Source: a virus (Duplodnaviria; Caudoviricetes). From it: 64,000 nt of DNA. Where the stretch lies: the IMG/VR virus record IMGVR_UViG_3300031673_000001. One strand, 5' to 3'. How positions within the stretch are numbered: position 1 is the first letter of the stretch; every line of letters begins with the position of its first letter. Below the pieces are notes generated by a model. The model was not told the origin of the DNA. It did not search any database and worked only from the letters and a program-made list of their open reading frames with translations. Made by a program: the position numbers and the translations under genes. Positions 3-40,188 of this stretch are shown here, piece by piece.

Positions 3-1487
3 ATCATCAACACTTGGAAAGAAACTATAGCTCAACTACAATTAAAAGATTTCGATCCAACTAAAGTTCAAACAGAAATAGATGTCTTACAAAAAGATTT
101 AGATTCTATTGAACTGCAAAATGAATCTCAAGAAAATCAACTGCTAACTCAAAAAGAACTTAAAATATATGAGTTAAAAAGTAAAGCAGATGAAGCTAAA
201 GAAGATCTCACCATAAGTTACAATAAAATTAAAGACGAATCAGTAGCTGAATGGAGAGAAGGTGAATCCAAAATAAATAAAAAAGTAAAAGAATTAATAG
301 AAGAGAAACATAAACTCGAAGTAGATGTTCAAACATTTAAAACTCAAGTTTTATCATTCAAGCAAAATATTAATAAAATCAATCAAAGCGTATTTGAATC
401 TAAAATATCATCATGCCCAACTTGTCTTCAAAAAATTACTGGTGATGTTAAACAACATCTAAAAGATGAAATTAAAAAATCTGAAGATTCTATTATAAAC
501 TGTGAAGAAAGTATTAAGAAATTTAATGATAGTATTTATGCACTTGGTTTAAAAATTACTGATGAACAACAAAAGTTAAATAATCTCAACATTCAATATG
601 ATATTGAATTAAAAGTATTAAAACAAAATCATGAAGAAAAACTTGAAGAAGTAAATGAAAGAATAAAAACTGTTCTTGAAAAAGTTGAAATAGCTGGAAA
701 AGAACAATTATCTATTCTTCGATCTAATTCACTTATAAAGATCAATCAATTAAATGAATCAATAAAGAAATTGTTATCCAAAAAAATAGAAGTTGAACTT
801 ATTAAACAAGAACTAGAATCATCTAAACAATCTTTACAAATAGCAGAGAACACAAAACAAAATCTTTTGAGAGATATTAGACAAAAAGAAGAAGAAGAAT
901 ATAATGAAACCCAATTGAATGGTTATATCAGTAGAGTTATAGAATATACAAAAGAGATTCAAGCTATTCAAAAATCAATTATATCTGAAAATAGACTATA
1001 TCAAATATATGATTTTTGGAAATCTGCTTATTCACCCACTGGTATTCCATCAACATTAATTGATGAAGCTATTCCATTTATGAATAAAAAAGTATCTGAA
1101 TATTTGGAGGAAATATCAAATGGTCGTTATATTATTTCATTTGATACCCAGGATGCAATCAAGTCAGGAGAAATGAGAGATAAAATTTCAGTTAAAGTTT
1201 TGGATACACATACAAGAGCAAATAAAAGACTTCAGTTATCAGGTGGTCAAACAAGATTAGTTGATATTGCAACAGTATTAACCCTTGGAGATTTACAATC
1301 AAAGAATTTAGGAATAAAAGTAAATCTATTAATATTTGATGAAATCTTTGATAGTTTGGATGCTCAAAATATTGATTATGTATCTAAGGTATTAATAAGA
1401 TTAAAGAAAGGAAAATCAATATATTTAATTTCACATACTCACCAAGACCAACTAGAAGCAGATCAAGTTCTTCAGTTTAAATCATAA
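3..1487 (+). CDS. sbcC: Rad50/SbcC/T4 gp46-like ABC-ATPase (recombination nuclease subunit), 5'-truncated by window edge
   Basis: Frame is open from position 3, well upstream of the track start at 771. Coiled coil with zinc hook CPTC (414-425), signature LSGGQ, Walker B LLIFDE, D-loop SLD, H-loop LISH. Confidence 0.93.
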   Translation: MINTWKETIAQLQLKDFDPTKVQTEIDVLQKDLDSIELQNESQENQLLTQKELKIYELKSKADEAKEDLTISYNKIKDESVAEWREGESKINKKVKELIEEKHKLEVDVQTFKTQVLSFKQNINKINQSVFESKISSCPTCLQKITGDVKQHLKDEIKKSEDSIINCEESIKKFNDSIYALGLKITDEQQKLNNLNIQYDIELKVLKQNHEEKLEEVNERIKTVLEKVEIAGKEQLSILRSNSLIKINQLNESIKKLLSKKIEVELIKQELESSKQSLQIAENTKQNLLRDIRQKEEEEYNETQLNGYISRVIEYTKEIQAIQKSIISENRLYQIYDFWKSAYSPTGIPSTLIDEAIPFMNKKVSEYLEEISNGRYIISFDTQDAIKSGEMRDKISVKVLDTHTRANKRLQLSGGQTRLVDIATVLTLGDLQSKNLGIKVNLLIFDEIFDSLDAQNIDYVSKVLIRLKKGKSIYLISHTHQDQLEADQVLQFKS

Positions 1488-1496
1488 GGAGGTTTA

Positions 1497-2519
1497 ATGA
1501 TAAGAATAGTAAATTGGTTGTTAACTCGTAGATGTAACCTAAATTGTGACTACTGTGCAATTGTAAAAAACTATCCCACCATGCCTTCTGAATATCCTCC
1601 TATGAGTCATTATATAAAAAATGAAATGACCACAGAGCAAGTTATCAAAGGATTAGATCAATTTCAGTTGCACAATCCAGATTGCTTTCATATCTGGTAT
1701 GGCGGCGAGCCAATTTTGAGGAAAGATTTAGCTGATATTATCAACCACTGTAATGAAAATTATATTCACTACACTATCATATCAAATAATACAAATGAAA
1801 TTATTCCATTGATTGAAAACTTATTTGATAACGTTGATCATATTCAAGGATTTACTGCATCTGTTGATCCATCATTTAATGAAAAAGGTAAGTTTGACAG
1901 AATAATAAAAAGCATATCTGGTTTTGAAAATCTTTTAAAACTCAAAGATCGTATTAATGATGTTGTTGCTGAAATAACAGTTATGAAACATAATGTAAAA
2001 TATCTATATGATCTTGTTAAACTATTAACAGAAAATGGGATCAGCAGTGATATAACATTTGTTGATATAGCAAAAAGTCCATTTTATGATTTCTCTAATA
2101 TAAGTGATGAAAACTTATTGGTAGAACAATCTTCAGAATTATCTGATGTATTTGATTCGTTAAATGATAGTGATTTAGATATTCATATGAAAGAAATCTT
2201 ATTACCAAAAATCTGGGAAATTCTACCATCAGAATTAGATTGTGAATTGGAGAAAGATCTTCATAATGTAACCGTTGATGCAGATGGAACGATTAGATTA
2301 TGTTTAAGAATAAGAGGAACTCATGCTCCAAAATTAGTTAAGGTATCAAATTTAATCGACTCAAAAGGTAACATATCATTTATTGCTGAAAAAGCAATTT
2401 CAAAAGATAAAGAAGTTCATTGTCTAGGATGTAACCATACATGCTTATTAATGAGTAAACATATTAATGAAACAGATCAAGGAACAGAAGATTTAATTCA
2501 TCTCGATAGGAGGGTATAA
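1497..2519 (+). CDS. Radical SAM enzyme with C-terminal Cys cluster (SPASM/twitch-like)
   Basis: CxxxCxxC (CNLNCDYC), GGEP motif, C-terminal C..CLGCNHTC; SD AGGAGG upstream. Confidence 0.88.
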   Translation: MIRIVNWLLTRRCNLNCDYCAIVKNYPTMPSEYPPMSHYIKNEMTTEQVIKGLDQFQLHNPDCFHIWYGGEPILRKDLADIINHCNENYIHYTIISNNTNEIIPLIENLFDNVDHIQGFTASVDPSFNEKGKFDRIIKSISGFENLLKLKDRINDVVAEITVMKHNVKYLYDLVKLLTENGISSDITFVDIAKSPFYDFSNISDENLLVEQSSELSDVFDSLNDSDLDIHMKEILLPKIWEILPSELDCELEKDLHNVTVDADGTIRLCLRIRGTHAPKLVKVSNLIDSKGNISFIAEKAISKDKEVHCLGCNHTCLLMSKHINETDQGTEDLIHLDRRV

Positions 2520-2521
2520 AA

Positions 2522-2836
2522 ATGGCAGCAGAAGAGCAGATTAGAAATGCAGTTAAATTTTGGGAAACCATATATGAAGCTGGAGAAGCAACCATTCGAT
2601 TTATTAAAAAGAGTGGAGTTTCAAGAACTATGAAATGTACCTTAGATTTTGAAAAAATTCCACAGAAACATCATCCTAAAAGTGTTAATATGCCAAAGAT
2701 ATTAAAGTTGATGCAAAAGAGTGGAATAATTCATGTCTATGATTTAGATAAAGGTGACTGGAGATCAGTTCCATTTGCAACTGTTGATTGGTTAGAAACT
2801 TCTGATCAGAGATATAAAATTTCACCTATAAAATAG
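2522..2836 (+). CDS. Small phage protein, WYL_2/DUF2693-like Sm/SH3 fold
   Basis: Pattern IRFIKKSG..RTM.CTL ... VYDLDKGDWRSV resembles the WYL_2/DUF2693 family. Confidence 0.55.
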   Translation: MAAEEQIRNAVKFWETIYEAGEATIRFIKKSGVSRTMKCTLDFEKIPQKHHPKSVNMPKILKLMQKSGIIHVYDLDKGDWRSVPFATVDWLETSDQRYKISPIK

Positions 2837-2844
2837 GAGCAATT

Positions 2845-3222
2845 ATGGATATTATAGATCAACTTTTAAAAGATATCCCATCAAGTGATATTACAGTACT
2901 GATAAAGGAATTTTGCACAAAAATATGGGAAGAAGAAAGCACAAAAGTAAAATATCCTCAAGTACTGCCAAGTGGAGCAAATATATTTCTTGCATTAGAA
3001 GTTCCTGCTAAAAATAAAGGACACATCTCATTTTTAACATTAGAAAGAGATCCAATGGATGAATATATTTCTAATTACTATTCAATAAAAATAATTGATA
3101 TTCAAGGTGCGGATTTACCCCAGATGCCACGAAGACATCAATCTCATAAACTTGAGGGAAGATCAGCAAAAAAAATAATAACTGAATTTGCAAAACTTAT
3201 AAAATTCTATAGAGGGGAATAA
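2845..3222 (+). CDS. Hypothetical protein
   Basis: 125-aa ORF with AGGAG SD, tightly packed in the operon; no motif recognised. Confidence 0.7.
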   Translation: MDIIDQLLKDIPSSDITVLIKEFCTKIWEEESTKVKYPQVLPSGANIFLALEVPAKNKGHISFLTLERDPMDEYISNYYSIKIIDIQGADLPQMPRRHQSHKLEGRSAKKIITEFAKLIKFYRGE

Positions 3223-3225
3223 CAA

Positions 3226-5886
3226 ATGCAATTGGGAATGAAAGATCTTTATGAAGATTATGATATTAGAATAAATAAACGTTATACATCTCTATTAATT
3301 TCGCATCAACCAACTGATTTATCAGCACAGGATCATACTGAAGCATTACCAACTAAACGAATAAAAGTATTACCAACAGATGAATATCTTAAAAAATATT
3401 CATTATTATCAGAAAAAACTTCAACGATTCTTCCTCCTGGTTGTAGATATATTGAAACGCTTAAAAATGGAGGAAGAATATATGTTATTGAAGAACCACC
3501 CCAATTTAGAACAGTAGCAATGTCATTAAACTTTGATCTTATGTATGAAGAAATTAAATCAAAAGGATTACTAGAAGAATATGATATTAAAGGTTGGTTA
3601 GAGAGCAATGTTACACAAACTTCATCAACTAACAGATACTATAAATTAAATCTTGCATTTCCATATGTTGTATTTGTCATTTATATTAATGAAAAAGCAA
3701 ATGTCGAAGTTGGTTATTCTTTTATTAGAACTAGTCAAATGATAGGATTATCTGATTATCTTTTAAAAATGCCAATGTCAAATATTGCAGAAAGTCAGGC
3801 AATATGTTTTGGTGATAGACTTAATTCAGAATCATATAACACAGATCATGAAGCTGTTAGATCAACTATTGATATATTTTGGACAAGTATCTTTAATACA
3901 GACTACACATATAACATCAATGCATATAAAAACGTTGTAGGAATATCAAATTTTTTAGAATGGCAATATCTATCAAGAAAAGATCCAATGTTTGTATATG
4001 TCGCTGACTGGGTTAGATATAATCACAATATCTTTGAACTTATTAATATTATAAAAGAAAGAAGAACCAGCAGATCAAATAATAATGGTAATTCAGATAC
4101 TTATACTACATTTTTAAAAACCTTTACAAAACCCGCAATCATTGGAGAAATTCAAACTGGAAAAATTAATAAAAGAGTTGATCAGCTTTATTATGACATC
4201 ACTACTGGTTTTTATATAACTGATATACTTAAATTAGAAATTGGAGATTCTTTTGAAAATGTAAATAAAACAAAGAAATATTTCGTTATTTCATTTATTG
4301 GCATTAGAGGAGACGATCCTAAAATAATAAGAATTTCATATAATGAAAAAGTATTTAATTTTACACTAAATAGAAAATCTATTCAATATTTAAAAGAAAG
4401 AATTGAAGAACAGCGATTTATTAAAACTATTGATCTTAATGGATTCATTATTAAATCCGGTGATATTATTAAATATATAGATATCACTGGGTCAGAAGTA
4501 TGTAAAAAAATTTACTATATTAGAAAATGTATAGATGGTCGACCAGAGATAAGAATGGGAAATAGATATTATTTAGCTAACAATCTTCCAAAAGGATTAG
4601 AAAAAGTAGATACAGATAATTTAAGCATATATGATATGAATTTGAAAATAGGGGATGAATATTTATACAGTCATTCTAATGCAAGTGATTCTCCTATTAT
4701 CAAACAAATAGAAAGATGTATATTTGATAGTATTGATGTTGCATCAAATAATGACTTGATGTTTAAATTTAAGTCTATGGATCCTCAAAGACAAAATGCC
4801 GACTTAGCAGTATATAGTAATAATACTTCAAACAATCGTCGCAATAGAAGAATATATCCAAAACTTGATTATACAGCAATATGTCAAAATTCTAAAGCAA
4901 CTTCAGTTGGTCGAAGTATTATGGAATTTATAGAGTTTGATGATAATGGAAGCACAATTCCATCCATAGTCTATAAAACACCTACTCACTATAATATTAA
5001 TGTTAATGCACTTTGTGAAAAATCTAAATCAGAAAATATTAAAAATCTCATTAAGAATGATACCACATTTGAAATAGATACCCACTCTGGCATTGTTAAA
5101 TTTGAAGTTGGTGATCTAGTTGTAGTTGCAAATTGGACAAACCCTTTAAGTGTTCTAGATATTAAAAGAATTGAAGCATTTAAAATAGAAGAGAAAGTAA
5201 AAACCATTAACATATCATTTATATTAGCAAATAAACTAGGAAATCTATCTGAAGAATTATTTGTAACTGGTTCTAATGTTCGTATTGGATATATCAGAAA
5301 AATTACAACTAAATTTCAACAGGTATCTGCTGGAATGAAGATTAAAGCAGAAAAAGGAAGAATATCAAATTTTCCAAAAAAAGATTACAATATTATTGTT
5401 GGTATTATTACTGACGGTCCGCAACCATTAGTATTATGTTCAAATGGTTGTACTTTATGGTATGAAGATGTTATAGAAAATTTCAAACTAATTCCAATAA
5501 ACTCTATACTATGGAAGAGCAATGATCATGTTGAATTTGATCTAAAGAAAATTAAACTTCAATCGGGAGATATTGCTATTCCTAATTATTATGGTAATGT
5601 TAATGATCCAGGACTCTTGATGGTTCAAAGTCAAATGAAAAGAGCTTTGAGATATCATCCATTAGACTCGTATTCAAGAAGGTATGATAGTTATAGCGCT
5701 AATTCTGATATGTCGCTTCATAAAGACTGTACATTACATTGTATACCAAATCCAAGAGTTTCAAAATCCGAGCAAGATAAAAATGGTTTTATTAGAGCAG
5801 TTCCTAATTTTCATGGAGGTTTTTATCTAAGTGAAAACTCACACTTTCTATATGTAAATGACTCAAGGAGCTTAATTAATGTTTAA
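3226..5886 (+). CDS. Prokaryotic E2 family D (PRTRC protein B-like) domain fused to tandem SH3/KOW-like repeats
   Basis: N-terminal LPPG..IEEPP..RTV / LAFPYVVF / MPMSNIAESQAICFG / FWTSIFN pattern of Prok-E2_D; six C-terminal modules starting LEIGDSF, IKSGDII, LKIGDEY, FEVGDLV, VSAGMKI, LQSGDIA. Confidence 0.72.
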   Translation: MQLGMKDLYEDYDIRINKRYTSLLISHQPTDLSAQDHTEALPTKRIKVLPTDEYLKKYSLLSEKTSTILPPGCRYIETLKNGGRIYVIEEPPQFRTVAMSLNFDLMYEEIKSKGLLEEYDIKGWLESNVTQTSSTNRYYKLNLAFPYVVFVIYINEKANVEVGYSFIRTSQMIGLSDYLLKMPMSNIAESQAICFGDRLNSESYNTDHEAVRSTIDIFWTSIFNTDYTYNINAYKNVVGISNFLEWQYLSRKDPMFVYVADWVRYNHNIFELINIIKERRTSRSNNNGNSDTYTTFLKTFTKPAIIGEIQTGKINKRVDQLYYDITTGFYITDILKLEIGDSFENVNKTKKYFVISFIGIRGDDPKIIRISYNEKVFNFTLNRKSIQYLKERIEEQRFIKTIDLNGFIIKSGDIIKYIDITGSEVCKKIYYIRKCIDGRPEIRMGNRYYLANNLPKGLEKVDTDNLSIYDMNLKIGDEYLYSHSNASDSPIIKQIERCIFDSIDVASNNDLMFKFKSMDPQRQNADLAVYSNNTSNNRRNRRIYPKLDYTAICQNSKATSVGRSIMEFIEFDDNGSTIPSIVYKTPTHYNINVNALCEKSKSENIKNLIKNDTTFEIDTHSGIVKFEVGDLVVVANWTNPLSVLDIKRIEAFKIEEKVKTINISFILANKLGNLSEELFVTGSNVRIGYIRKITTKFQQVSAGMKIKAEKGRISNFPKKDYNIIVGIITDGPQPLVLCSNGCTLWYEDVIENFKLIPINSILWKSNDHVEFDLKKIKLQSGDIAIPNYYGNVNDPGLLMVQSQMKRALRYHPLDSYSRRYDSYSANSDMSLHKDCTLHCIPNPRVSKSEQDKNGFIRAVPNFHGGFYLSENSHFLYVNDSRSLINV

Positions 5887-7537
5887 AATAGTAGTTGCCG
5901 ATGGAAAACAAGAACTACCAGATGATGATATTTATTATATAGTTGCAAAAGAAGGTATTTTTATAAAAAAGAAATTGGGCATTATGGATAGTGTATCACC
6001 AGTTAAAAATATTTCAATATTAAAAAGTGTTCAAGCAACAGCAAAGATGAATATTGAAAAAATACCATCAATATCTATAGCTAAGGTTTCTAATTTCTTT
6101 AGAGCTGTTCAAAAAGAACATAGATCAGAAGCAATTGTATTATTATTTTATAATGAAAAAACTAAAAAATATAAGTTATTTCCGCCAGCACAAAAAGTGA
6201 GTCCTGCATCAATTGAATATAATAGGGCAGTTGTTATAGATGGTTGGACCATGATTGGTGATATTCATAGTCATAGTTCAATGTCTGCATTTCATTCAGG
6301 AACAGATCAAGGAGATGAGGAGTCTTTCGATGGATTACATATTACATTTGGAAATATGAACTCTGATTTAATAAGTATCTCCGCCTCAATTGTTTCAAAT
6401 GGTAACAGAGTAATAGTTAAACCAGAAGAATATATGAAAGGTATAGAATTAAAAGAAGAGATTGATGAAGTTGAGCAAATTCCTACCACAAGAGTTTATA
6501 GGTGGATCAATGGAAAAATGGTTGAAACAACTCCAAAATTTACAACCGCAGGATTTAAAACCTATCGTAAATATGATAAACGATACAAGGTAGTAAGTGA
6601 GAATGCTATTAAAGCTCAAGTTCCACCCTCATGGTTAGATGCTATTGAAGAACATGAAGTTCGTCATATTTATGGTAATTTTAATCAGTCATTCATAAAT
6701 TGGCCAGAGCATTATAGACATGGATATCCTCAATTTAATCGCGGACCTTGGGCTCCTCGTATTAAAAATGGATGGAATAGAAATTTTGATCCAGATGTTT
6801 GGAGTAGAGAATCTATTAAAGTTCCACCTCAAAATGTTGGAGTTAAAACTAAACCTATTACATTTCCTCCGCATGACCAAGGTCCACTTATTACTGATAT
6901 AACTACTCCTACCAAACCAACTCCTTGTGAATCCTGTGCATTCAAGGAAAGAGCAATTGAATATGTTGCTAAAATAATGGTAGAGAAAAATCAAGGATCC
7001 ATTGAAGAACAGGAAGATGATATATTTGATAAAGAGTCATATGAATGTGAGAAGTGTAATCTAATTGTATCATTTTATTATGATGACTGTGGAGAAATTA
7101 AAGATGATATTATATGTCCATCATGTAAATCAGATGAGCATTTAACCCTACTTGATATAGGATTAAAGGATAAAGATGAAGATGAAGATGATGATCCCTA
7201 TAATTTTGATGACTATCTTTCTGATTTAAAACAAGATTATAAAATCAATTGTAAAACTTGTGGAAGTCAGTTTGATTTATCAATGACAAAAAAAGATGAT
7301 AATGGAGTATCATGTCCATTCTGTGGAAAATTATTATCTACAGAAACAGAAAGCGATCTATTAGATTTAGATGGAGTTAATATAAAGAATATAAGCGAAG
7401 AAGAAATTTCTAATTATAAAGCAGCAAAAGAAAATCCAAATCCATCTAATATAATACCAGATCCTTCTAAACAAATGGTAGCAGACAGTATAAACTCACT
7501 TAAACAATTATTTGAAAAATTTAGGGGAAATAGATGA
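5879..7537 (+). CDS. JAB/JAMM (MPN+) metallo-isopeptidase, PRTRC protein A-like, with C-terminal zinc ribbons and acidic tail
   Basis: E...HxHx7Sx2D motif (SEAIV...IHSHSSMSAFHSGTD); CEKC/CPSC and CKTC/CPFC pairs; D/E-rich stretch. Confidence 0.9.
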   Translation: MFKIVVADGKQELPDDDIYYIVAKEGIFIKKKLGIMDSVSPVKNISILKSVQATAKMNIEKIPSISIAKVSNFFRAVQKEHRSEAIVLLFYNEKTKKYKLFPPAQKVSPASIEYNRAVVIDGWTMIGDIHSHSSMSAFHSGTDQGDEESFDGLHITFGNMNSDLISISASIVSNGNRVIVKPEEYMKGIELKEEIDEVEQIPTTRVYRWINGKMVETTPKFTTAGFKTYRKYDKRYKVVSENAIKAQVPPSWLDAIEEHEVRHIYGNFNQSFINWPEHYRHGYPQFNRGPWAPRIKNGWNRNFDPDVWSRESIKVPPQNVGVKTKPITFPPHDQGPLITDITTPTKPTPCESCAFKERAIEYVAKIMVEKNQGSIEEQEDDIFDKESYECEKCNLIVSFYYDDCGEIKDDIICPSCKSDEHLTLLDIGLKDKDEDEDDDPYNFDDYLSDLKQDYKINCKTCGSQFDLSMTKKDDNGVSCPFCGKLLSTETESDLLDLDGVNIKNISEEEISNYKAAKENPNPSNIIPDPSKQMVADSINSLKQLFEKFRGNR

Positions 7538-8220
7538 AAGAATTATCCATTAAAATCATTGGGTTGGGTGGCGTTGGTTCAGTATTATGTGAAAAGATAG
7601 CAAGATTTTTAAATTACGCCACAGATATTAACGCAAAGTTGACATTAGTAGATGGTGATTCGTATGAAAGTAAAAATTATCAAAGACAAGAATTTACACA
7701 GATGGGAAATAAATCTAGGATTAAAGGTGGAGATTTAGAAAATAAGTTTCCAAATATAGATTTAGATTATTATCCTGCATATATAAATAATGTAAATATT
7801 AATGAAGTCATAAAGTCAGACGATATTGTATTTCTATGTGTTGATAATCATAAAACTAGAATGATCACATCTAAATACTGTAATATGTTAAGCAATATTA
7901 CTTTGATATCTGGTGGAAATGAATTTACGGATGGTAATGTACAAATTTATGTCAGGAAAGGGGGGAAAGATTTAACACCTGATCTCTGTTCTTATCATCC
8001 AGAAATTGCAAATCCCGCAGATAAATTACCAGAGGAAATGAGTTGTGAAGAATTAGCAAATTCAGATCCTCAACTCTACTTCACCAATGTGTGGGTAGCT
8101 ACACTTATGTGTGCAGCATTTTATAATGTAGTTATAAAAAATAACATTGGACCATCTGAAATTTATTTTGATATGACACAGATGTCCGCTATTGCGAAAA
8201 TAAGAGCTCTTAAACAATAA
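7534..8220 (+). CDS. E1/ThiF-family ubiquitin-like activating enzyme
   Basis: GLGGVG nucleotide loop, LVDGD, NYQRQ, GNK, CVDN..R, and a putative catalytic Cys in MSCEE followed by QLYFTN. Confidence 0.92.
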   Translation: MKELSIKIIGLGGVGSVLCEKIARFLNYATDINAKLTLVDGDSYESKNYQRQEFTQMGNKSRIKGGDLENKFPNIDLDYYPAYINNVNINEVIKSDDIVFLCVDNHKTRMITSKYCNMLSNITLISGGNEFTDGNVQIYVRKGGKDLTPDLCSYHPEIANPADKLPEEMSCEELANSDPQLYFTNVWVATLMCAAFYNVVIKNNIGPSEIYFDMTQMSAIAKIRALKQ

Positions 8221-8250: not shown

Positions 8251-8742
8251 ATGGCAAGCGAATATACTTATGAAAATCTGGATAAAATGACCGTCCCCGA
8301 ACTTCGACGTCTATGTGTTGATAAACTTGGAATTCCAGGTATGACCAAAAAACGCAAAGATATTATCATTAAAGCTATTATAAAGCTTCAAGGAAGTTCA
8401 TCCAAACCCTCAGTAGCACCTACTGCAGTAGCTACTGCACCAAAACAAGAAGGTCCATTAACTGAATTAGGTTTTTCTGGACATAGTGTTTTAGATAAAC
8501 CCTATGCATCATTTGGTAATAAAATGAAAACCACAATTCAGGTAACTTGTGGTGCTAGTTCAGGAGCTTTTCCTGTTGAAGGAAAAAGTGTATCTGAAGT
8601 TGGTGAGTTCCTGCGGGAAGTTCTGAATGTGGATAAACTGTCCACAGGTCTGGTCAATGGAAAAGAAATCCCTGGAAGTTATATACTGAAAAACGGAGAT
8701 AGTTTGGAATTTATGAAACCTGCTGGTCGTAAAGGTCGTTAA
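8251..8742 (+). CDS. Rho-N/HeH-like domain fused to a ubiquitin-like (beta-grasp) domain
   Basis: N-term LDKMTVPELRRLC..LGIPGMTKKRKDIIIKAI (Rho_N pattern); Ser/Pro/Ala linker; C-term LVNG...YILKNGDSLEF.KPAGRKGR* (ThiS/Prok_Ub-like ending). Confidence 0.82.
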   Translation: MASEYTYENLDKMTVPELRRLCVDKLGIPGMTKKRKDIIIKAIIKLQGSSSKPSVAPTAVATAPKQEGPLTELGFSGHSVLDKPYASFGNKMKTTIQVTCGASSGAFPVEGKSVSEVGEFLREVLNVDKLSTGLVNGKEIPGSYILKNGDSLEFMKPAGRKGR

Positions 8743-8808: not shown

Positions 8809-9711
8809 TTGAAATTGGATAGTTTAACAATAATTGGAACTGGAACATTAGGAGCACATCTTTGTAAACATCTTGCTGAAAGTTCAGAAATAAGTAAGTT
8901 AATATTAATTGATGCTGATACAGTTGATTCAAAAGACATATCTATTGGTATTTTTAAACAAGTAGATATTTGTCAACCAAAAGTACATGTATTGCATGAT
9001 ATGTTTTCTACTTATGATACTGAAATTGAACCAAGGGTAGAGTTTTATAAAGATGGTATTACACAATTAGCACCAACCGACCTTATAATTGATTGCAGAA
9101 ATGTGTTTGGAAAAAGGGATATTAACATTGATTTAAAAATGTTTATAACAGAAAGGATTTTAATATTAGATTTTGAAAAGAGATTTAAAAATGAAAGTCA
9201 ATTAAAAGGAGAGTACTCCTATAAGTTATCAAAACATGAAATAAGTACAGCTGCTCATTATGCTACAAATTTAATATTATGTAGCAATATTCTAGAAGAG
9301 TTATTAAAAAGTCAATCAGTTAAATGTATTCATATTGATACAATTAAGTCAATAATATTACAGAATATATGCAGTTCAAAACAAAGATATGATATAGTTT
9401 ATGATCTAGATAAGGATGTGGAAAGATTACCACGGATTCATGAAGTTATACAACCAATACTAAAAAAGAATAGAACATCTAATTTAAAGTTGGCAGTCAA
9501 AGAAAGAAGCTCAATTGCTAAAAATATTTTTGAATTTCCAGATGCACCTAAAACAAAATATCAAATAATACCACAAAATAGTTTAAGACAACCAGAAGAT
9601 GTAATTAATTTTTTGAAAAAAATAGTTCAAACTAAAAACGGAACTTCGAAACTTAGACCGGTTCTTATACATGATGAAATTTATATTTTGTCAGAAACAG
9701 GAGGTGCATAA
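8809..9711 (+). CDS. Second, degenerate ThiF/E1-like protein
   Basis: TTG start after AGGAG; IIGTGTLG, LIDAD, Q-PK; N..RQ replaced by KDISIG and DxxD by DCRN. Confidence 0.7.
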   Translation: MKLDSLTIIGTGTLGAHLCKHLAESSEISKLILIDADTVDSKDISIGIFKQVDICQPKVHVLHDMFSTYDTEIEPRVEFYKDGITQLAPTDLIIDCRNVFGKRDINIDLKMFITERILILDFEKRFKNESQLKGEYSYKLSKHEISTAAHYATNLILCSNILEELLKSQSVKCIHIDTIKSIILQNICSSKQRYDIVYDLDKDVERLPRIHEVIQPILKKNRTSNLKLAVKERSSIAKNIFEFPDAPKTKYQIIPQNSLRQPEDVINFLKKIVQTKNGTSKLRPVLIHDEIYILSETGGA

Positions 9712-9712
9712 T

Positions 9713-10177
9713 ATGATTCATCACAATGTAACTATATGTGGAACCGGAAATATTCCATCCACGAATTATGATTTTTACTTTGAAAAAATAATTCCAAAGT
9801 TTACTTTACAAAATAAAACTTATCGACAAATAATCAATATACATAAAATTTATCATTTAGAAGGATTTTGTATTAAAACATACGATACTAAATTAAAAAA
9901 AGTTATGGTATATGGATGGCATCCTAATGTAGATTCTAAAACAAATGAACTTTGTTTATCCAATGATCTACAAGGACAATATGTTCTGGATATTGAAAAT
10001 CTGAAGAATCTATTAATTAGTATGCTTGAAGTTTACAACCTTGATGAATGTTATAATACACCAATTGCCAATCTTTATGAAACAAAAAATGTTGATGCTC
10101 AAGGACAACCATTCTACTTTAATCTTATGAAAGGAATTATATACAATGAACAATCATCCATTAGATCAATATATTGA
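9713..10177 (+). CDS. Ubiquitin-conjugating enzyme E2-like protein (UBC fold)
   Basis: HPNVDSKTNELCL matches the E2 active-site HPN(x7-8)CL; downstream LLISML..NLD helix. Start moved to ATG 9713, 7 nt after GGAGGT. Confidence 0.72.
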   Translation: MIHHNVTICGTGNIPSTNYDFYFEKIIPKFTLQNKTYRQIINIHKIYHLEGFCIKTYDTKLKKVMVYGWHPNVDSKTNELCLSNDLQGQYVLDIENLKNLLISMLEVYNLDECYNTPIANLYETKNVDAQGQPFYFNLMKGIIYNEQSSIRSIY

Positions 10178-10397
10178 AAATAGAATTAAAGAATATGTTA
10201 GGAATAATGAGACAATTATAAAAAAACAAGATGCACAAGTTATTATTAATACCTTAATGCCATTAGTTGATGAGATAATAGCAGATAAGGTAAAGCAGCA
10301 TTTAAAATTTATAGCACAATATTTAATAGATTCACTTAAATCAAAAGAGGAGAAACCAGTAGATGCCAAAGATACTGAACTATCAACAGTTTTGTGA
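10146..10397 (+). CDS. Hypothetical helical protein
   Basis: 83-aa ORF overlapping both neighbours, AAGGA SD. Confidence 0.6.
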   Translation: MNNHPLDQYIENRIKEYVRNNETIIKKQDAQVIINTLMPLVDEIIADKVKQHLKFIAQYLIDSLKSKEEKPVDAKDTELSTVL

Positions 10398-16638: not shown

Positions 16639-16760
16639 TTTTTGATAATCCAATATTATTATTTCAATGTTCAAATGATAGTGAACATAAACTTCTTGTA
16701 TTAGATGAATGGAAAGTAGCTATTGCAGAAGAATTTTATAGAGGAGCATATTATGAATGA
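16515..16760 (+). CDS. Small putative zinc-binding protein
   Basis: CSIC ... C.ND.EH; GGAG SD upstream of ATG. Confidence 0.6.
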   Translation: MLKTEYCSICKEEITIRYHIPDKNFKIEKGKIVRDDIHKGMIFDNPILLFQCSNDSEHKLLVLDEWKVAIAEEFYRGAYYE

Positions 16761-17610
16761 TAACGAATGTCTTCCAGATATACAATGTACAGAACCAGCA
16801 TTACAAATTCCTATCAAGCAAGTTGGAGTTGAAAATGTTGTGGTTCCTTTTAGTTTAGAATCTAAAAATGGTGGATTTCATAATTTGACAGCAAACGTCA
16901 CTATGATGACTAATTTAGATCATACAACAAAAGGAATCTCAATGTCTAGATTATTATTAACATTAAAACCATATTTGGAACTTCCATTAAAAAGTAAATT
17001 AATAAAAGAAATAATTAAAAAGATGTTAGAAAACGTTGGTGGTTCATCAGCATTTATGAGATTTAAATTTAGACTACCAAGAATTCGAGAATCCATTAAA
17101 ACAAAAAATTCATTTCCAATCTATTATAAATGTAAGTTTGAGGGACAGATATTTAAAAAAGAATTATATGAAGAATTTAGATTCTTTCAAGGGGTTACAG
17201 TTCAATATGCATCATATTGCCCATGTTCCGCAGAACTATGCAGCGTATTAAATGAAAGAGGATTTCCTCATAATCAAAGATCATTTGCGCAAATCTTAAC
17301 AGAAATAGATACTAAATCTCATTATGTTTGGTTAGAAGATATTATTGATGCAGTCGAAAATAATATACACACCTTACCATATCCAGTAATTAAAAGAATT
17401 GATGAACAAGAGATAGCAAGAATTGCAGCAAAGAATCCAATGTTTGTAGAAGATGCAATTAGAATAATATCTAATTCTGTTGATAAAATACCAGGTGTGA
17501 TAGATTGGGTTGTAAAATGTATTCATGAAGAATCAATACATACTTCTGAAGCAGTAGCAGTCAATTGGAAAGGAACTTTAAATGGATTTGATGGAAGGCG
17601 TTACATATGA
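16753..17610 (+). CDS. folE2: GTP cyclohydrolase I, type IB (FolE2/MptA family)
   Basis: IPIKQVGV, KGISMSRL, YASYCPCS, PHNQRS, NPMFVED..R, EESIH.SEA; start placed at ATG 16753 after GAGGAG. Confidence 0.93.
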   Translation: MNDNECLPDIQCTEPALQIPIKQVGVENVVVPFSLESKNGGFHNLTANVTMMTNLDHTTKGISMSRLLLTLKPYLELPLKSKLIKEIIKKMLENVGGSSAFMRFKFRLPRIRESIKTKNSFPIYYKCKFEGQIFKKELYEEFRFFQGVTVQYASYCPCSAELCSVLNERGFPHNQRSFAQILTEIDTKSHYVWLEDIIDAVENNIHTLPYPVIKRIDEQEIARIAAKNPMFVEDAIRIISNSVDKIPGVIDWVVKCIHEESIHTSEAVAVNWKGTLNGFDGRRYI

Positions 17611-18308
17611 TTACAATTTCAATTTCATATGGTTTTGGTAAGAATAATAGATATAATATTGAAACTATACCAAAGAATATCCAACTCGCAATATATAAAT
17701 ATGAAGAGTTTTTAGAATCTAACTTAAAGATATTACACGAAAATAATATAAATGTAAATGTAGTTCATCTTCCTTTAGATACTCTTAAAAAAGACCAATA
17801 TGAAATGATAGAGTTTATGAATGCCTTGCGCTATAAAATAGGTGTAAAAAAGTTTGTAATTCATCCAAACAAAACGATTAAATCTTTTGTTGAATACTGG
17901 ATGAGTTTTCAGGCGAAAGACCCAACATATCAATTATGTATTGAGAACTTTCAATGGAGGATGAAAAAAGAATTAAAATCTCCATTAGAAATATTAGAAT
18001 ATTGTATTACATATCCTAATCATATAAAAATGTGTTTGGATACATCTCATACAGAAGAAATCTGGTTGGATCATAAAATATTAAATACCTTGCTTCGCTA
18101 TGTTTCAGTTATACACTTATCAAATAGACAAGGAAAAAAACAACATATGCCATTTAACTCAAGCAAGGGAGATTTAAATTTAATGGCATTTGTTAATAAC
18201 CTAAAATTTGTTAAATGGAGTGGCGATATTGTATTAGAATATATGCCAGAACATCAGCACAAATTATTTAAAAACTATCAATTTCTAAGGGAGATAATGG
18301 ATGGATAG
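17607..18308 (+). CDS. TIM-barrel metalloenzyme, AP-endonuclease-2/xylose isomerase-like
   Basis: VHLP, VIHP, CIEN, CLDTSH, IHLSN, HMP, VLEY metal-ligand pattern. Confidence 0.82.
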   Translation: MITISISYGFGKNNRYNIETIPKNIQLAIYKYEEFLESNLKILHENNINVNVVHLPLDTLKKDQYEMIEFMNALRYKIGVKKFVIHPNKTIKSFVEYWMSFQAKDPTYQLCIENFQWRMKKELKSPLEILEYCITYPNHIKMCLDTSHTEEIWLDHKILNTLLRYVSVIHLSNRQGKKQHMPFNSSKGDLNLMAFVNNLKFVKWSGDIVLEYMPEHQHKLFKNYQFLREIMDG

Positions 18309-38175: not shown

Positions 38176-40188
38176 TTACTTAATGAAAAAGTTCAACTCA
38201 ATTTTCTCAACCACTCTGGTTGGTTCCAAGGTTACATTAACATGAAAAGTCTTTGTCTTTCTTTCATAATCCGTTGCCCCAACATCAATAGAATATGAAT
38301 CAAGACCTCGTTTGTTTTTTATAACCTCTAGAAACTCTGTTATTGCTCCTCCCACCTGACCCCAGGTAATAGGATCATTCTGTTCAAAGATAAAATATCT
38401 ACAGAATTGCTCAAGTGCTCTCTTACAATATAAAACAAGTCTTACAATATTTAAATCTTGTAATGCACTTGCTTTAGCTTGAGCGGTCAATTGTCCCCAA
38501 ACAACATAACCCGCTGAAAATTGAACAATTGGATTTAGTTGTTTTAGATACATCTGATCCCTTTGTCCAAGACGTGGATTATATCTAAGCTCCTTAATGT
38601 TATCTATTGCACCTCTATTAAATCCAGCAGCTGCAAACCAAAGCTGTGCAATATTGTCATTTCTTGGTAACAAGTATGACATATGATAAATCGGTGAGAA
38701 CCAAATATCTTGTCCTGTAAATGGATCAGATACTTTACTATATGATTCATATAATGATACATAATAATTATTATATGGATGACTACTTGTTCGTGTTGCT
38801 AATGCAGCTGTTACTGATACATTATCTCCATTATCAAGGATGCCAACACAATCTCTTCTAGTCGAACAAAGTGTGCTGATAGCTGTTTTTGTATCTGATG
38901 GATAACCAGCATCATACACAATTGAGAAATAAGTATTTTCTGTATCCAGGACTTCATCCACATAATTTCCATTATTCGGATTTGTTAGAATTCCTGTATA
39001 ACCTTGTTCAAGTAAAGTTGGTGCTGAAGATGCTGCCCAAACTCCAGAAGTATCAGTATTAAGACTTCTATCAAGTTTCCACAATGATCCTTCAGAACCT
39101 TTTCTTAAAGGTTTTGGTTCAGATGAACTAAATGCACTAGCAATATTTGAGTATGATTTCTTAATTGTATATGTAATTGATGAATCAGTATCAAAAGATG
39201 TAAAATCTGAAGATGTTGAATCCGTTGCCCAGGATTGAATTGCTGTATTTAAATCATTGGTTGACCAGACTTCCATTGTCTCACCATCAACACCTGATGA
39301 GTCGCCTAACCATCCATAGATTTCATTTCCTCTTCCATCTTTTGCAATAACTACATAAGATGCAGTCCCTGCTACAGCAGGTTCCCATTCAGAAAAGTCT
39401 TGCTTATTATCTGTAATTGTTGCGGAACCAGATGTTTTTACAACAACTGTTGTTCCAATATCTTTATCATAAGTTTTAACTGCTTGTTCATAACCACTTG
39501 TATAAGCTCCACTTGCAAGTTCCATATCCGCTCTTAAAACAGATGAATATGTTTCAAGAACAGATCCAATAAAAACTGACTCACCAGCTGAATCTACAGC
39601 ATTCGGGTCAAATGAAACTTCAAATGATTCAATTATAACATCATCATCATCCGACTGCTTCTCATATATATCTAGAACATAAACTCCATCTATCGTTGGG
39701 TTTGAGTGTATAGTAAGTCGTATTCCTAAAGAGTTATAATAATCACCTCTTCCAATTGGTCTTAAGAATGCAATTGGATTTTTTAAACCATCAACTTCAA
39801 GATTTGTTGTAATCTCACCTTTTGTATTTAAACTATCAACATAAGTGATTGAAGTTACTGAAGTACCATCACCAACCAATTGATTATCAATTCTAAAATT
39901 AGCGTAAGTAGCATCATCTGGTAATAGACGAATCCAAAATAACGCTCCAGATTCTCCTAAATGATTATATGCTACATATGGACCTTGTCCATAACTCTTT
40001 CCAAAGTCAACAATATTCGGTTCACCAAATTCTGAAATTAGTTCAGATCTTGAACCTAAAAATAGTAATTCATTATCTCTACCTTTATGTGTAAAACCGC
40101 ACAGAAAACCAATGGTTGACGGTACAGCTTGCACAAAAGCAGAGAGATCAATAATCTTGGTATAAACGCCTGGGCTCACATTTGACAT
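38176..40188 (-). CDS. Contractile tail sheath protein (gp18-like)
   Basis: MS..SPGVYTKIIDLS N-terminus; WFAAAGFNRG, LY..Q.NPIV, WGQ.T, LNIVRL..Y, FIFEQND..TW, P.R.VE.I.L.F. Confidence 0.95.
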   Translation of the reverse strand: MSNVSPGVYTKIIDLSAFVQAVPSTIGFLCGFTHKGRDNELLFLGSRSELISEFGEPNIVDFGKSYGQGPYVAYNHLGESGALFWIRLLPDDATYANFRIDNQLVGDGTSVTSITYVDSLNTKGEITTNLEVDGLKNPIAFLRPIGRGDYYNSLGIRLTIHSNPTIDGVYVLDIYEKQSDDDDVIIESFEVSFDPNAVDSAGESVFIGSVLETYSSVLRADMELASGAYTSGYEQAVKTYDKDIGTTVVVKTSGSATITDNKQDFSEWEPAVAGTASYVVIAKDGRGNEIYGWLGDSSGVDGETMEVWSTNDLNTAIQSWATDSTSSDFTSFDTDSSITYTIKKSYSNIASAFSSSEPKPLRKGSEGSLWKLDRSLNTDTSGVWAASSAPTLLEQGYTGILTNPNNGNYVDEVLDTENTYFSIVYDAGYPSDTKTAISTLCSTRRDCVGILDNGDNVSVTAALATRTSSHPYNNYYVSLYESYSKVSDPFTGQDIWFSPIYHMSYLLPRNDNIAQLWFAAAGFNRGAIDNIKELRYNPRLGQRDQMYLKQLNPIVQFSAGYVVWGQLTAQAKASALQDLNIVRLVLYCKRALEQFCRYFIFEQNDPITWGQVGGAITEFLEVIKNKRGLDSYSIDVGATDYERKTKTFHVNVTLEPTRVVEKIELNFFIK

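Follow-up and report, generated by a model that had tools for sequence, protein, structure and literature searches.

The E2-like gene and its conserved motif

The window analysed here is a stretch of 64 kb (64,000 nucleotides; IMG/VR record IMGVR_UViG_3300031673_000001) that is part of the genome of an uncultured giant tailed phage (tail-sheath gene at 38176-40188). An open reading frame (ORF) at 9713-10177 on the plus strand (translated part 9713-10174) codes for a protein of 154 amino acids (aa; P0001), referred to below as the E2-like protein, which resembles ubiquitin-conjugating (E2) enzymes and is encoded in one block with a putative ubiquitin-like modifier (Ubl), two proteins of the ThiF (E1-like) family and a JAB peptidase. 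Residues 69-82 of the E2-like protein read WHPNVDSKTNELCL, that is, W69, the triad HPN (70-72), the stretch VDSKTNEL, C81 and L82. A first-pass annotation of this DNA, made from the sequence alone, had pointed to an E2 motif of the HPN...C type in this ORF, and both the translation and the conservation in relatives bear this out. The motif had also been described as one residue longer than the canonical one. This holds only against the spacing of UBE2D-type E2s, which we take to be one residue shorter than the HPN-x8-C found here; the spacing is the same as in human UBE2K, to whose segment WHPNISSVTGAICL the motif was aligned by HMMER without gaps.

The features of the gene are as follows.

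9713..10177, plus strand: E2-like gene (core of the ubiquitin-conjugating, UBC, fold), 154 aa; identified from the ORF, a weak UQ_con match at aa 68-126, 65 relatives and the fold predicted with AlphaFold2 (AF2)
9699..9704, plus strand: Shine-Dalgarno sequence AGGAGG of the E2-like gene, 8 nt upstream of the ATG at 9713
9920..9928, plus strand: HPN triad His70-Pro71-Asn72 (His70 codon at 9920-9922); conserved in the alignment and aligned without gaps with the HPN of UBE2K
9953..9955, plus strand: Cys81, the predicted thioester-forming cysteine; conserved in the alignment and aligned with the catalytic Cys of UBE2K
10037..10054, plus strand: second motif Y-N-L-D-x-C-Y (Asp111, Cys113), located after the crossover helix; conserved in the alignment

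The ATG at 9713 was taken as the start codon because it is preceded by the AGGAGG at 9699-9704 and because homologues align from residue 1. The AGGAGG overlaps the final codons (T-G-G) of the upstream ThiF-like gene, and similar overlap or coupling was seen at other loci. Gene calls on several metagenome contigs, independent of one another and as long as 237 kb, gave identical boundaries.

When 1.84 billion cluster representatives were scanned exhaustively with HMMER, 65 relatives of the E2-like protein were retrieved (E ≤ 0.001), all of them metagenomic and eight with E ≤ 1e-10, and 60 of the 65 contain the exact pattern HPN-x8-C. In a 62-row alignment of the family (A1), His70 is present in every row (62/62), and Pro71, Asn72 and Cys81 are each present in 61. 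Since these residues are near-invariant in an alignment with a mean column identity of only 23%, the conservation of the HPN-Cys motif is beyond chance; the retention of His, Asn and Cys in homologues, which the first-pass annotation had named as a check on its claim, thus extends over 62-65 relatives. The second motif is conserved to a lesser degree (Leu110 in 49, Asp111 in 52, Cys113 in 49 and Tyr114 in 50 of the 62 rows), and in the UBE2K alignment Asp111 falls on the PDDP loop. No conserved His was found downstream of Cys81 in this alignment. The shorter relatives (about 110 aa) consist of the core only. Two relatives have an unusual architecture: P0023 (L015 237-1139), a protein of 300 aa, carries an additional C-terminal domain of about 190 aa, and P0062 (L016 1794-2531) contains tandem E2-like domains, an arrangement resembling a fused pair of a ubiquitin E2 variant (UEV) and an E2. 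The gene order Ubl, second ThiF-like gene (ThiF'), E2, RNA polymerase is kept at the P0062 locus, where the RNA polymerase beta' protein also gave a weak match to an intein.

Simpler searches did not reveal the family. A word-indexed homologue search with the E2-like protein returned only the protein itself, and a search for related loci in viral contigs with this single protein yielded no confirmed relatives. Among 50,697 deposited phage genomes, neither tblastn with the E2-like and ThiF' proteins nor megablast with the region gave a match, and no deposited phage genome matches the window at the DNA level. A degenerate DNA pattern for HPNCDPxT-x3-C, which covers one sub-motif only, had three matches in 185,579 species genomes, none of them in an open frame, and these are regarded as chance.

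Sequence matches and predicted fold

The sole Pfam match of the E2-like protein was to the E2 family UQ_con (PF00179; E = 0.0033, aa 68-126 on profile positions 70-129), with a score of 17.5 bits that misses the gathering cut-off of 27. All 13 matches obtained with phmmer among PDB sequences were eukaryotic E2s (E = 0.17-1.2), with HPN and Cys in register without gaps. Searches of PHROGs, NCBIfam and PADLOC (E ≤ 0.1) assigned no family to the protein, and no Prok-E2 model (Prok-E2_A to Prok-E2_E) was reported for it in a Pfam scan at E ≤ 1, in which the HMMER filters drop most matches above about 0.1. The sequence evidence for an E2 is thus weak but points in one direction.

A structural model was calculated with AF2 from the 62-sequence alignment without templates and reached a mean predicted local distance difference test score (pLDDT) of 91.9 and a predicted template modelling score (pTM) of 0.80. 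In this model, strands at residues 17-26, 30-43, 49-57 and 60-66 are followed by the HPN loop, Cys81 and a crossover helix at 94-105; the way in which the last strand, HPN, Cys and helix are spaced closely follows what we take to be the spacing in UbcH5. An alpha-1 helix, which in canonical E2s binds E1 and E3, is absent, and strands at 2-8 and 17-26 stand in its place, in agreement with the first-pass description of the N-terminal half as divergent. The same annotation had placed after the motif a helix ending in NLD: the helix is indeed predicted, and N109-L110-D111 comes after it rather than at its end. Helices alpha-3 and alpha-4 are missing as well, the segment after helix 94-105 being modelled as short strands of lower confidence, so that the protein is without three of the four canonical E2 helices.

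Comparisons of the model with known structures returned mainly E2s. A VIA-align search of 48,161 representative chains ranked an E2 first (1yrv; 103 residues at a root-mean-square deviation of 4.0 Å) with a Z of 5.5; a Z below 8 may reflect no more than a common arrangement. About 38 of the top 50 chains, judged by eye from their titles, were UBC, UEV or RWD proteins, including BubB (9eav_D, Z 5.0) and CdnG-E2 (8hsb_B, Z 4.3). Foldseek against the PDB gave a list consisting of nearly all E2s with E-values of 0.2 or worse throughout; when its candidates were realigned, 24 chains had Z ≥ 5, again nearly all E2s, with about 100 residues superposed at 3.3-4.0 Å. The structural alignments begin at residue ~20-26 of the E2, past alpha-1. 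In the ESM Atlas, the fold search placed a UQ_con cluster first (template modelling score 0.50 over 108 residues), the next row scoring 0.34; the feature search returned only uninformative rows below 0.9, and the Atlas's own model of the protein is poor (pLDDT 0.33). A Foldseek search of BFVD yielded no match with E below 0.2, with a few E2s of giant viruses and African swine fever virus amid noise. The elements of the UBC core (beta-meander, HPN flap, active-site loop and crossover helix alpha-2) are therefore all present in the predicted structure, with modest scores and in four consistent searches, and structure prediction against UBC folds, the other check named by the first-pass annotation, gave a model that resembles the UBC core.

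The surrounding gene block and the partner proteins

The E2-like gene occupies the sixth place in a compact block of genes that all run in the same direction, and directly downstream of this block lie unsplit genes for the beta' and beta subunits of RNA polymerase (beta' from 10363 onward). The other genes of the block and the small ORF that follows are listed below.

3226..5886, plus strand: 886-aa protein with an N-terminal E2-family-D-like domain; Prok-E2_D match with E = 0.011 at aa 146-235
5879..7537, plus strand: JAB/JAMM peptidase of 552 aa with C-terminal zinc ribbons; Prok-JAB match with E = 8.8e-05 and PRTRC_A match with E = 2.5e-15, below the cut-off
7534..8220, plus strand: ThiF-type E1 of 228 aa; Pfam ThiF match with E = 6e-20 and sub-threshold NCBIfam PRTRC_ThiF match with E = 4.7e-10
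8251..8742, plus strand: candidate Ubl modifier of 163 aa with a Rho_N-like head and a beta-grasp-like tail; weak Rho_N, ThiS and Ub-Mut7C matches
8809..9711, plus strand: ThiF-like protein of 300 aa (ThiF'); Pfam ThiF match with E = 1.9e-08 and an E1 adenylation fold in the AF2 model
10146..10397, plus strand: small conserved ORF of 83 aa; its first 32 nt are shared with the 3' end of the E2-like gene, and the RNA polymerase beta' gene follows

The first-pass annotation had noted two ThiF genes and a Ubl near the E2-like gene; both were found again, together with the JAB gene. In eight of nine distinct contexts, down to 27% E2 identity, the E2-like gene stands directly after a ThiF-family gene coding for 285-309 aa, which it often overlaps. 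In the ninth (P0006, on a 1.1-kb contig), it adjoins an uncharacterised, cut ORF of 206 aa, and two more contigs below 1.3 kb are too short to display the gene upstream. Wherever the flanks sufficed, the same order recurred: SMC-like, radical SAM, WYL_2, the protein of about 880 aa, JAB, ThiF, Ubl, ThiF', E2-like and RNA polymerase; the block is preserved in relatives in which ThiF' identity falls to 26-33%. Because the same block recurs across contexts, it represents a core module conserved in a phage clade rather than a stray gene. Judged by RNA polymerase beta', the closest cultured phage is Rhizobium phage RHph_Y65 (28% identity), which has no such operon beside its polymerase.

Further genes accompany the block. 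Upstream of it (window 3-3222) lie genes for an SMC/AAA_23-like ATPase, a radical SAM protein, a WYL_2 protein and a 125-aa ORF, and downstream of the polymerase (window 16723-18308) a GTP cyclohydrolase I-like gene (GCHY-1) and a gene for a protein with an AP-endonuclease fold. These neighbours are conserved, and relatives with ThiF' identity down to ~30% retain their order. The 83-aa ORF is matched by syntenic ORFs of 75-82 aa in L007 and L013, and all share an N-terminal PLDDY..I motif.

Several properties of the encoded proteins bear on a conjugation cascade. The 163-aa Ubl ends in ...KPAGRKG-R, and among its homologues ...KPAG[R/K]KG is followed either by nothing (L007 6531-7001, L016 405-866) or by one residue (Arg in the window, Cys in L013 8475-8936), a C-terminus that, as read from the translations, fits a reactive terminal Gly that would at times need trimming. 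The 228-aa ThiF E1 has intact GxGxxG, NxxRQ and DNxxxR motifs in its translation. The JAB protein, whose length ranges from 375 to 603 aa among relatives, has a C-terminal extension (residues ~360-490) with a lone CxxC, two CxxC...CxxC zinc ribbons and an acidic stretch, which might serve as a treble-clef module of Ubl-binding or E3-like type.

The 886-aa protein contains Cys194 within the pattern PxSNI-x5-ICFG, invariant in three sequences at 35-51% identity. Its domain at residues 146-235 also has an FNTDY motif downstream of Cys194 and thereby presents a second E2-like active site in the operon, with E2-like spacing and no His. Comparison of the E2-like family with this E2-D-like domain by hhalign found no relation and Pfam assigns different models to the two, so the E2-like protein is distinct from the E2-D gene, as the first-pass annotation had held.

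The 300-aa ThiF-like protein encoded immediately upstream of the E2-like gene has a predicted E1 adenylation fold in residues 1-185 (VIA comparison of the AF2 model: Cap2 E1 domain Z 17.6, MoeB 16.5, SAE1 16.4). It departs from the canonical ATP-site motifs: another sequence has replaced NxxRQ, and in the place of DCTDN stands DCRN here and DCRD in distant relatives. Its C-terminal extension of about 110 aa ends in G-G-A, and the last ~75 residues, predicted as strand-(loop)-strand-helix-hairpin, appear compatible with a beta-grasp in the model. All 18 aligned relatives (alignment A2) and the 285-aa homologue of L016 end exactly in G-[GAS]-A (ETGGA, ETGAA, DDGSA). The terminal Gly codons of the gene (last codons at 9697-9708) overlap the GGAGG of the coupled E2 gene, and the conservation of G-x-A could thus be due in part to this Shine-Dalgarno sequence; the L009 lineage, however, retains G-S-A without such an overlap. 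The extension could be an E2-recruiting ubiquitin-fold domain or a conjugatable tail. Prediction of a complex between the 300-aa ThiF-like and the E2-like protein, both supplied as alignments, returned a score of 0.00, that is, no answer, which says nothing either way.

Proposed function, alternatives and comparison with known systems

We consider the E2-like ORF to code, probably, for a minimal and highly diverged HPN-type E2 with a UBC fold that carries out the thioester-forming conjugating step of a phage Ubl cascade. The gene neighbourhood, with two ThiF genes, a Ubl ending in Gly and a JAB gene, is consistent with thioester formation by such a protein. With the motif, the degree to which it is conserved, the fold prediction and the linkage of the genes as observations, we infer the following chemical steps. 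The JAB peptidase would trim the single residue past the terminal Gly of the Ubl, and the 228-aa ThiF E1 would adenylate this Gly, perhaps as a pair with the 300-aa ThiF-like protein. The Ubl would then move as a thioester to Cys81, with Asn72 and Asp111 shaping the site, and would finally be transferred to lysines of phage or host targets, perhaps chosen by the 886-aa multi-domain protein. The UBC-like model and the conservation of His, Asn and Cys support the first-pass reading of the protein as the probable catalytic E2 of the operon; it need not be the only one, because the 886-aa protein has an invariant Cys of its own.

A number of results weigh against this interpretation. The Pfam match falls short of its threshold, and UQ_con was matched by none of the other 61 family members at E ≤ 0.1. 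A profile of the whole family found a single E2 among PDB sequences, Pex4, at E = 0.62. The Foldseek E-values of 0.2 or worse and the Z of about 5.5 are likewise sub-threshold or middling, and both the alpha-1 helix and helices alpha-3 and alpha-4 are missing from the model. In P0023, Asp replaces the catalytic Cys (HPNADPESKELDL), and in the tandem protein P0062, copy 1 has HPN without the Cys and copy 2 has HPN-x8-C. Moreover, given Cys194, there may be two active E2-like enzymes in the operon, and the Ubl could pass via the 886-aa protein instead.

Some of these observations would be expected if the protein were an adaptor with a UBC, UEV or RWD fold that forms no thioester and, bound to the Ubl, to its ThiF-like partner or to the E2-D-like 886-aa protein, assists or regulates conjugation, as Mms2 assists Ubc13, the thioester being formed on Cys194. 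The resemblance of the JAB and ThiF proteins of the operon to PRTRC, the invariant Cys in the E2-D-like domain of the 886-aa protein, the many non-catalytic UEV and RWD domains that match at the same Z as E2s, the one relative with Asp for Cys, the tandem with a Cys-less copy and the absence of the E1-contacting alpha-1 would all fit this role. UEV-type proteins, however, characteristically lose HPN-Cys features, and loss of the active-site Cys, the hallmark of UEVs, is confined here to isolated relatives: Cys81 is found in 61 of the 62 rows, accompanied by the whole HPN triad at a constant distance, the exceptions being P0023 and the first copy of P0062, and the Cys-less tandem copy adjoins a Cys-bearing one. 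We therefore regard an adaptor as unlikely. Quite improbable, in our view, is another Cys/His enzyme, for example a deconjugating or deamidating hydrolase or a metal-binding module formed by His70, Cys81 and Cys113, with the likeness to UBC proteins reflecting a simple alpha/beta arrangement and a convergent motif. The Z lies in the range that VIA calls common, all Foldseek E-values are 0.2 or worse, the family profile barely detects E2s, and nothing in the UBE2K alignment corresponds to the conserved Cys113 (49/62). Against such an enzyme, four independent searches (Pfam, phmmer on the PDB, VIA and the ESM Atlas) agree on E2s and on no hydrolase family; HPN, Cys and the acidic loop residue are co-linear with UBE2K; the operon already has a JAB peptidase; and an obligatory partner gene of the E1 fold is in keeping with an E2.

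The E2-like protein might also act, as an active or decoy E2, in counter-defence against the Bil, type II CBASS (cyclic-oligonucleotide-based anti-phage signalling system) Cap2 or Bub pathways of the host. Bacterial-world Ubl conjugation has so far been characterised as anti-phage host defence (type II CBASS Cap2, Bil, Bub), the characterised systems all acting in phage defence (PMC10557695, PMC11601596), and both phage ThiF proteins weakly match PADLOC models of Cap2-type E1-E2 proteins. The phage, however, supplies its own E1, Ubl and JAB and does not need host components, and a block that is syntenic across the clade between DNA-repair-like genes and RNA polymerase looks like a core function and less like an exchangeable anti-defence gene; we consider counter-defence very unlikely indeed. 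Returning to an HPN-type E2, it is conceivable, though we give it a rather low probability, that this enzyme makes up, with the 300-aa ThiF-like protein, a second and self-contained arm of the system, in which the G-x-A tail either recruits the E2 in a heterodimeric E1, like the ubiquitin-fold domain of eukaryotic E1s, or is itself activated and conjugated, like the C-terminus of the CD-NTase in type II CBASS. To such an arm the ThiF-like protein would contribute a degenerate adenylation domain and a beta-grasp-like C-terminal module. If this were true, a giant-phage clade would possess a two-E1, two-E2 machine of eukaryote-like complexity in its core gene set beside RNA polymerase, and an independent lineage of classical HPN-type E2s would exist outside eukaryotes and archaea.

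Our data suggest that some phages run their own protein-tagging cascade. A classical HPN-Cys site exists in a large, uncatalogued viral family, which bears on the origin of eukaryote-type E2s. Since no model in Pfam, PHROGs, NCBIfam or PADLOC detects this family at its threshold, its members at present go without annotation in metagenomes. Cys81 is the residue whose mutation would test phage protein tagging in infection, and the neighbouring RNA polymerase and the nucleic-acid-binding-type head of the Ubl point to testable targets.

A full-text literature search found no description of a phage-encoded cascade of E1, E2, Ubl and JAB; the closest report concerns an Asgard-archaeal virus that has ThiF/E1-like genes only. 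We know of no PRTRC counterpart to the HPN-type E2 or to the second ThiF-like gene. The operon is similar to PRTRC cassettes and class 6d operons, which comprise Ubl, JAB, E1-like and E2-like genes (Iyer et al. 2006, PMC1779556): the most specific NCBIfam matches of the JAB and the 228-aa ThiF proteins are PRTRC_A and PRTRC_ThiF, and the 886-aa protein weakly matches Prok-E2_D. With scores of 56.6 bits against a cut-off of 101.8 for JAB (PRTRC_A) and 39.2 against 144.75 for ThiF (PRTRC_ThiF; TIGR03735/TIGR03736 set), it resembles the PRTRC core and is not a member. Most bacterial E2-like families are without the classical HPN-Cys site; those of classes 6c and 6d have no classical His, and class 6d has a His after the Cys (PMC1779556).

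As in Type I/II BilABCD operons, in which BilB is the E2, a stand-alone E2 is encoded with an E1, a JAB and a Ubl, and the end of the phage Ubl (KG or KG plus one residue) matches the arrangement in Type II Bil, in which the reactive Gly is capped by one or more extra residues that are trimmed by JAB (PMC10557695). BilD is a single E1 chain with an inactive and an active adenylation domain, whereas the phage has two separate ThiF-like genes. BilB is described as using Cys138 with the adjacent His151 downstream, and an HPN triad is not mentioned in the text of its description (PMC10557695). The phage family, in contrast, has HPN before the Cys, no conserved His after it (in BilB-type proteins such a His lies about 13 residues away) and no match to a PADLOC model, so it is not recognised by defence models.

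BubB, an accepted bacterial E2, superposes on UBE2D2 at 3.8 Å over 104 C-alpha atoms and is without the C-terminal helix pair (PMC11601596). Like BubB and the E2 domain of Cap2, the phage protein has a diverged UBC fold without this helix pair, and its superposition values are similar to those of BubB; unlike BubB, which uses serine and oxyester intermediates, it has Cys81, and unlike Cap2, in which the E2 is fused to its E1, it is a separate protein. With the classical UQ_con E2s of eukaryotes and archaea (such as human UBE2K, UBE2U and UBE2L3) it shares the HPN upstream of the Cys, the eight-residue spacing of UBE2K, an acidic residue in the loop that follows the crossover helix and a core that can be superposed (about 100 residues at 3.3-4.0 Å) and is made up of the beta-meander, the HPN flap, the Cys and alpha-2, and, as with classical E2s, its gene adjoins E1-like, Ubl and JAB genes. 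It differs from them in an identity of only about 15%, in extra N-terminal strands instead of alpha-1, in short strands instead of alpha-3 and alpha-4, in the additional YNLDxCY motif conserved in the phage family and in being encoded by a phage. Because it scores below the family threshold and is without three of the four helices, the E2-like protein is a new, diverged variant rather than a member of UQ_con.

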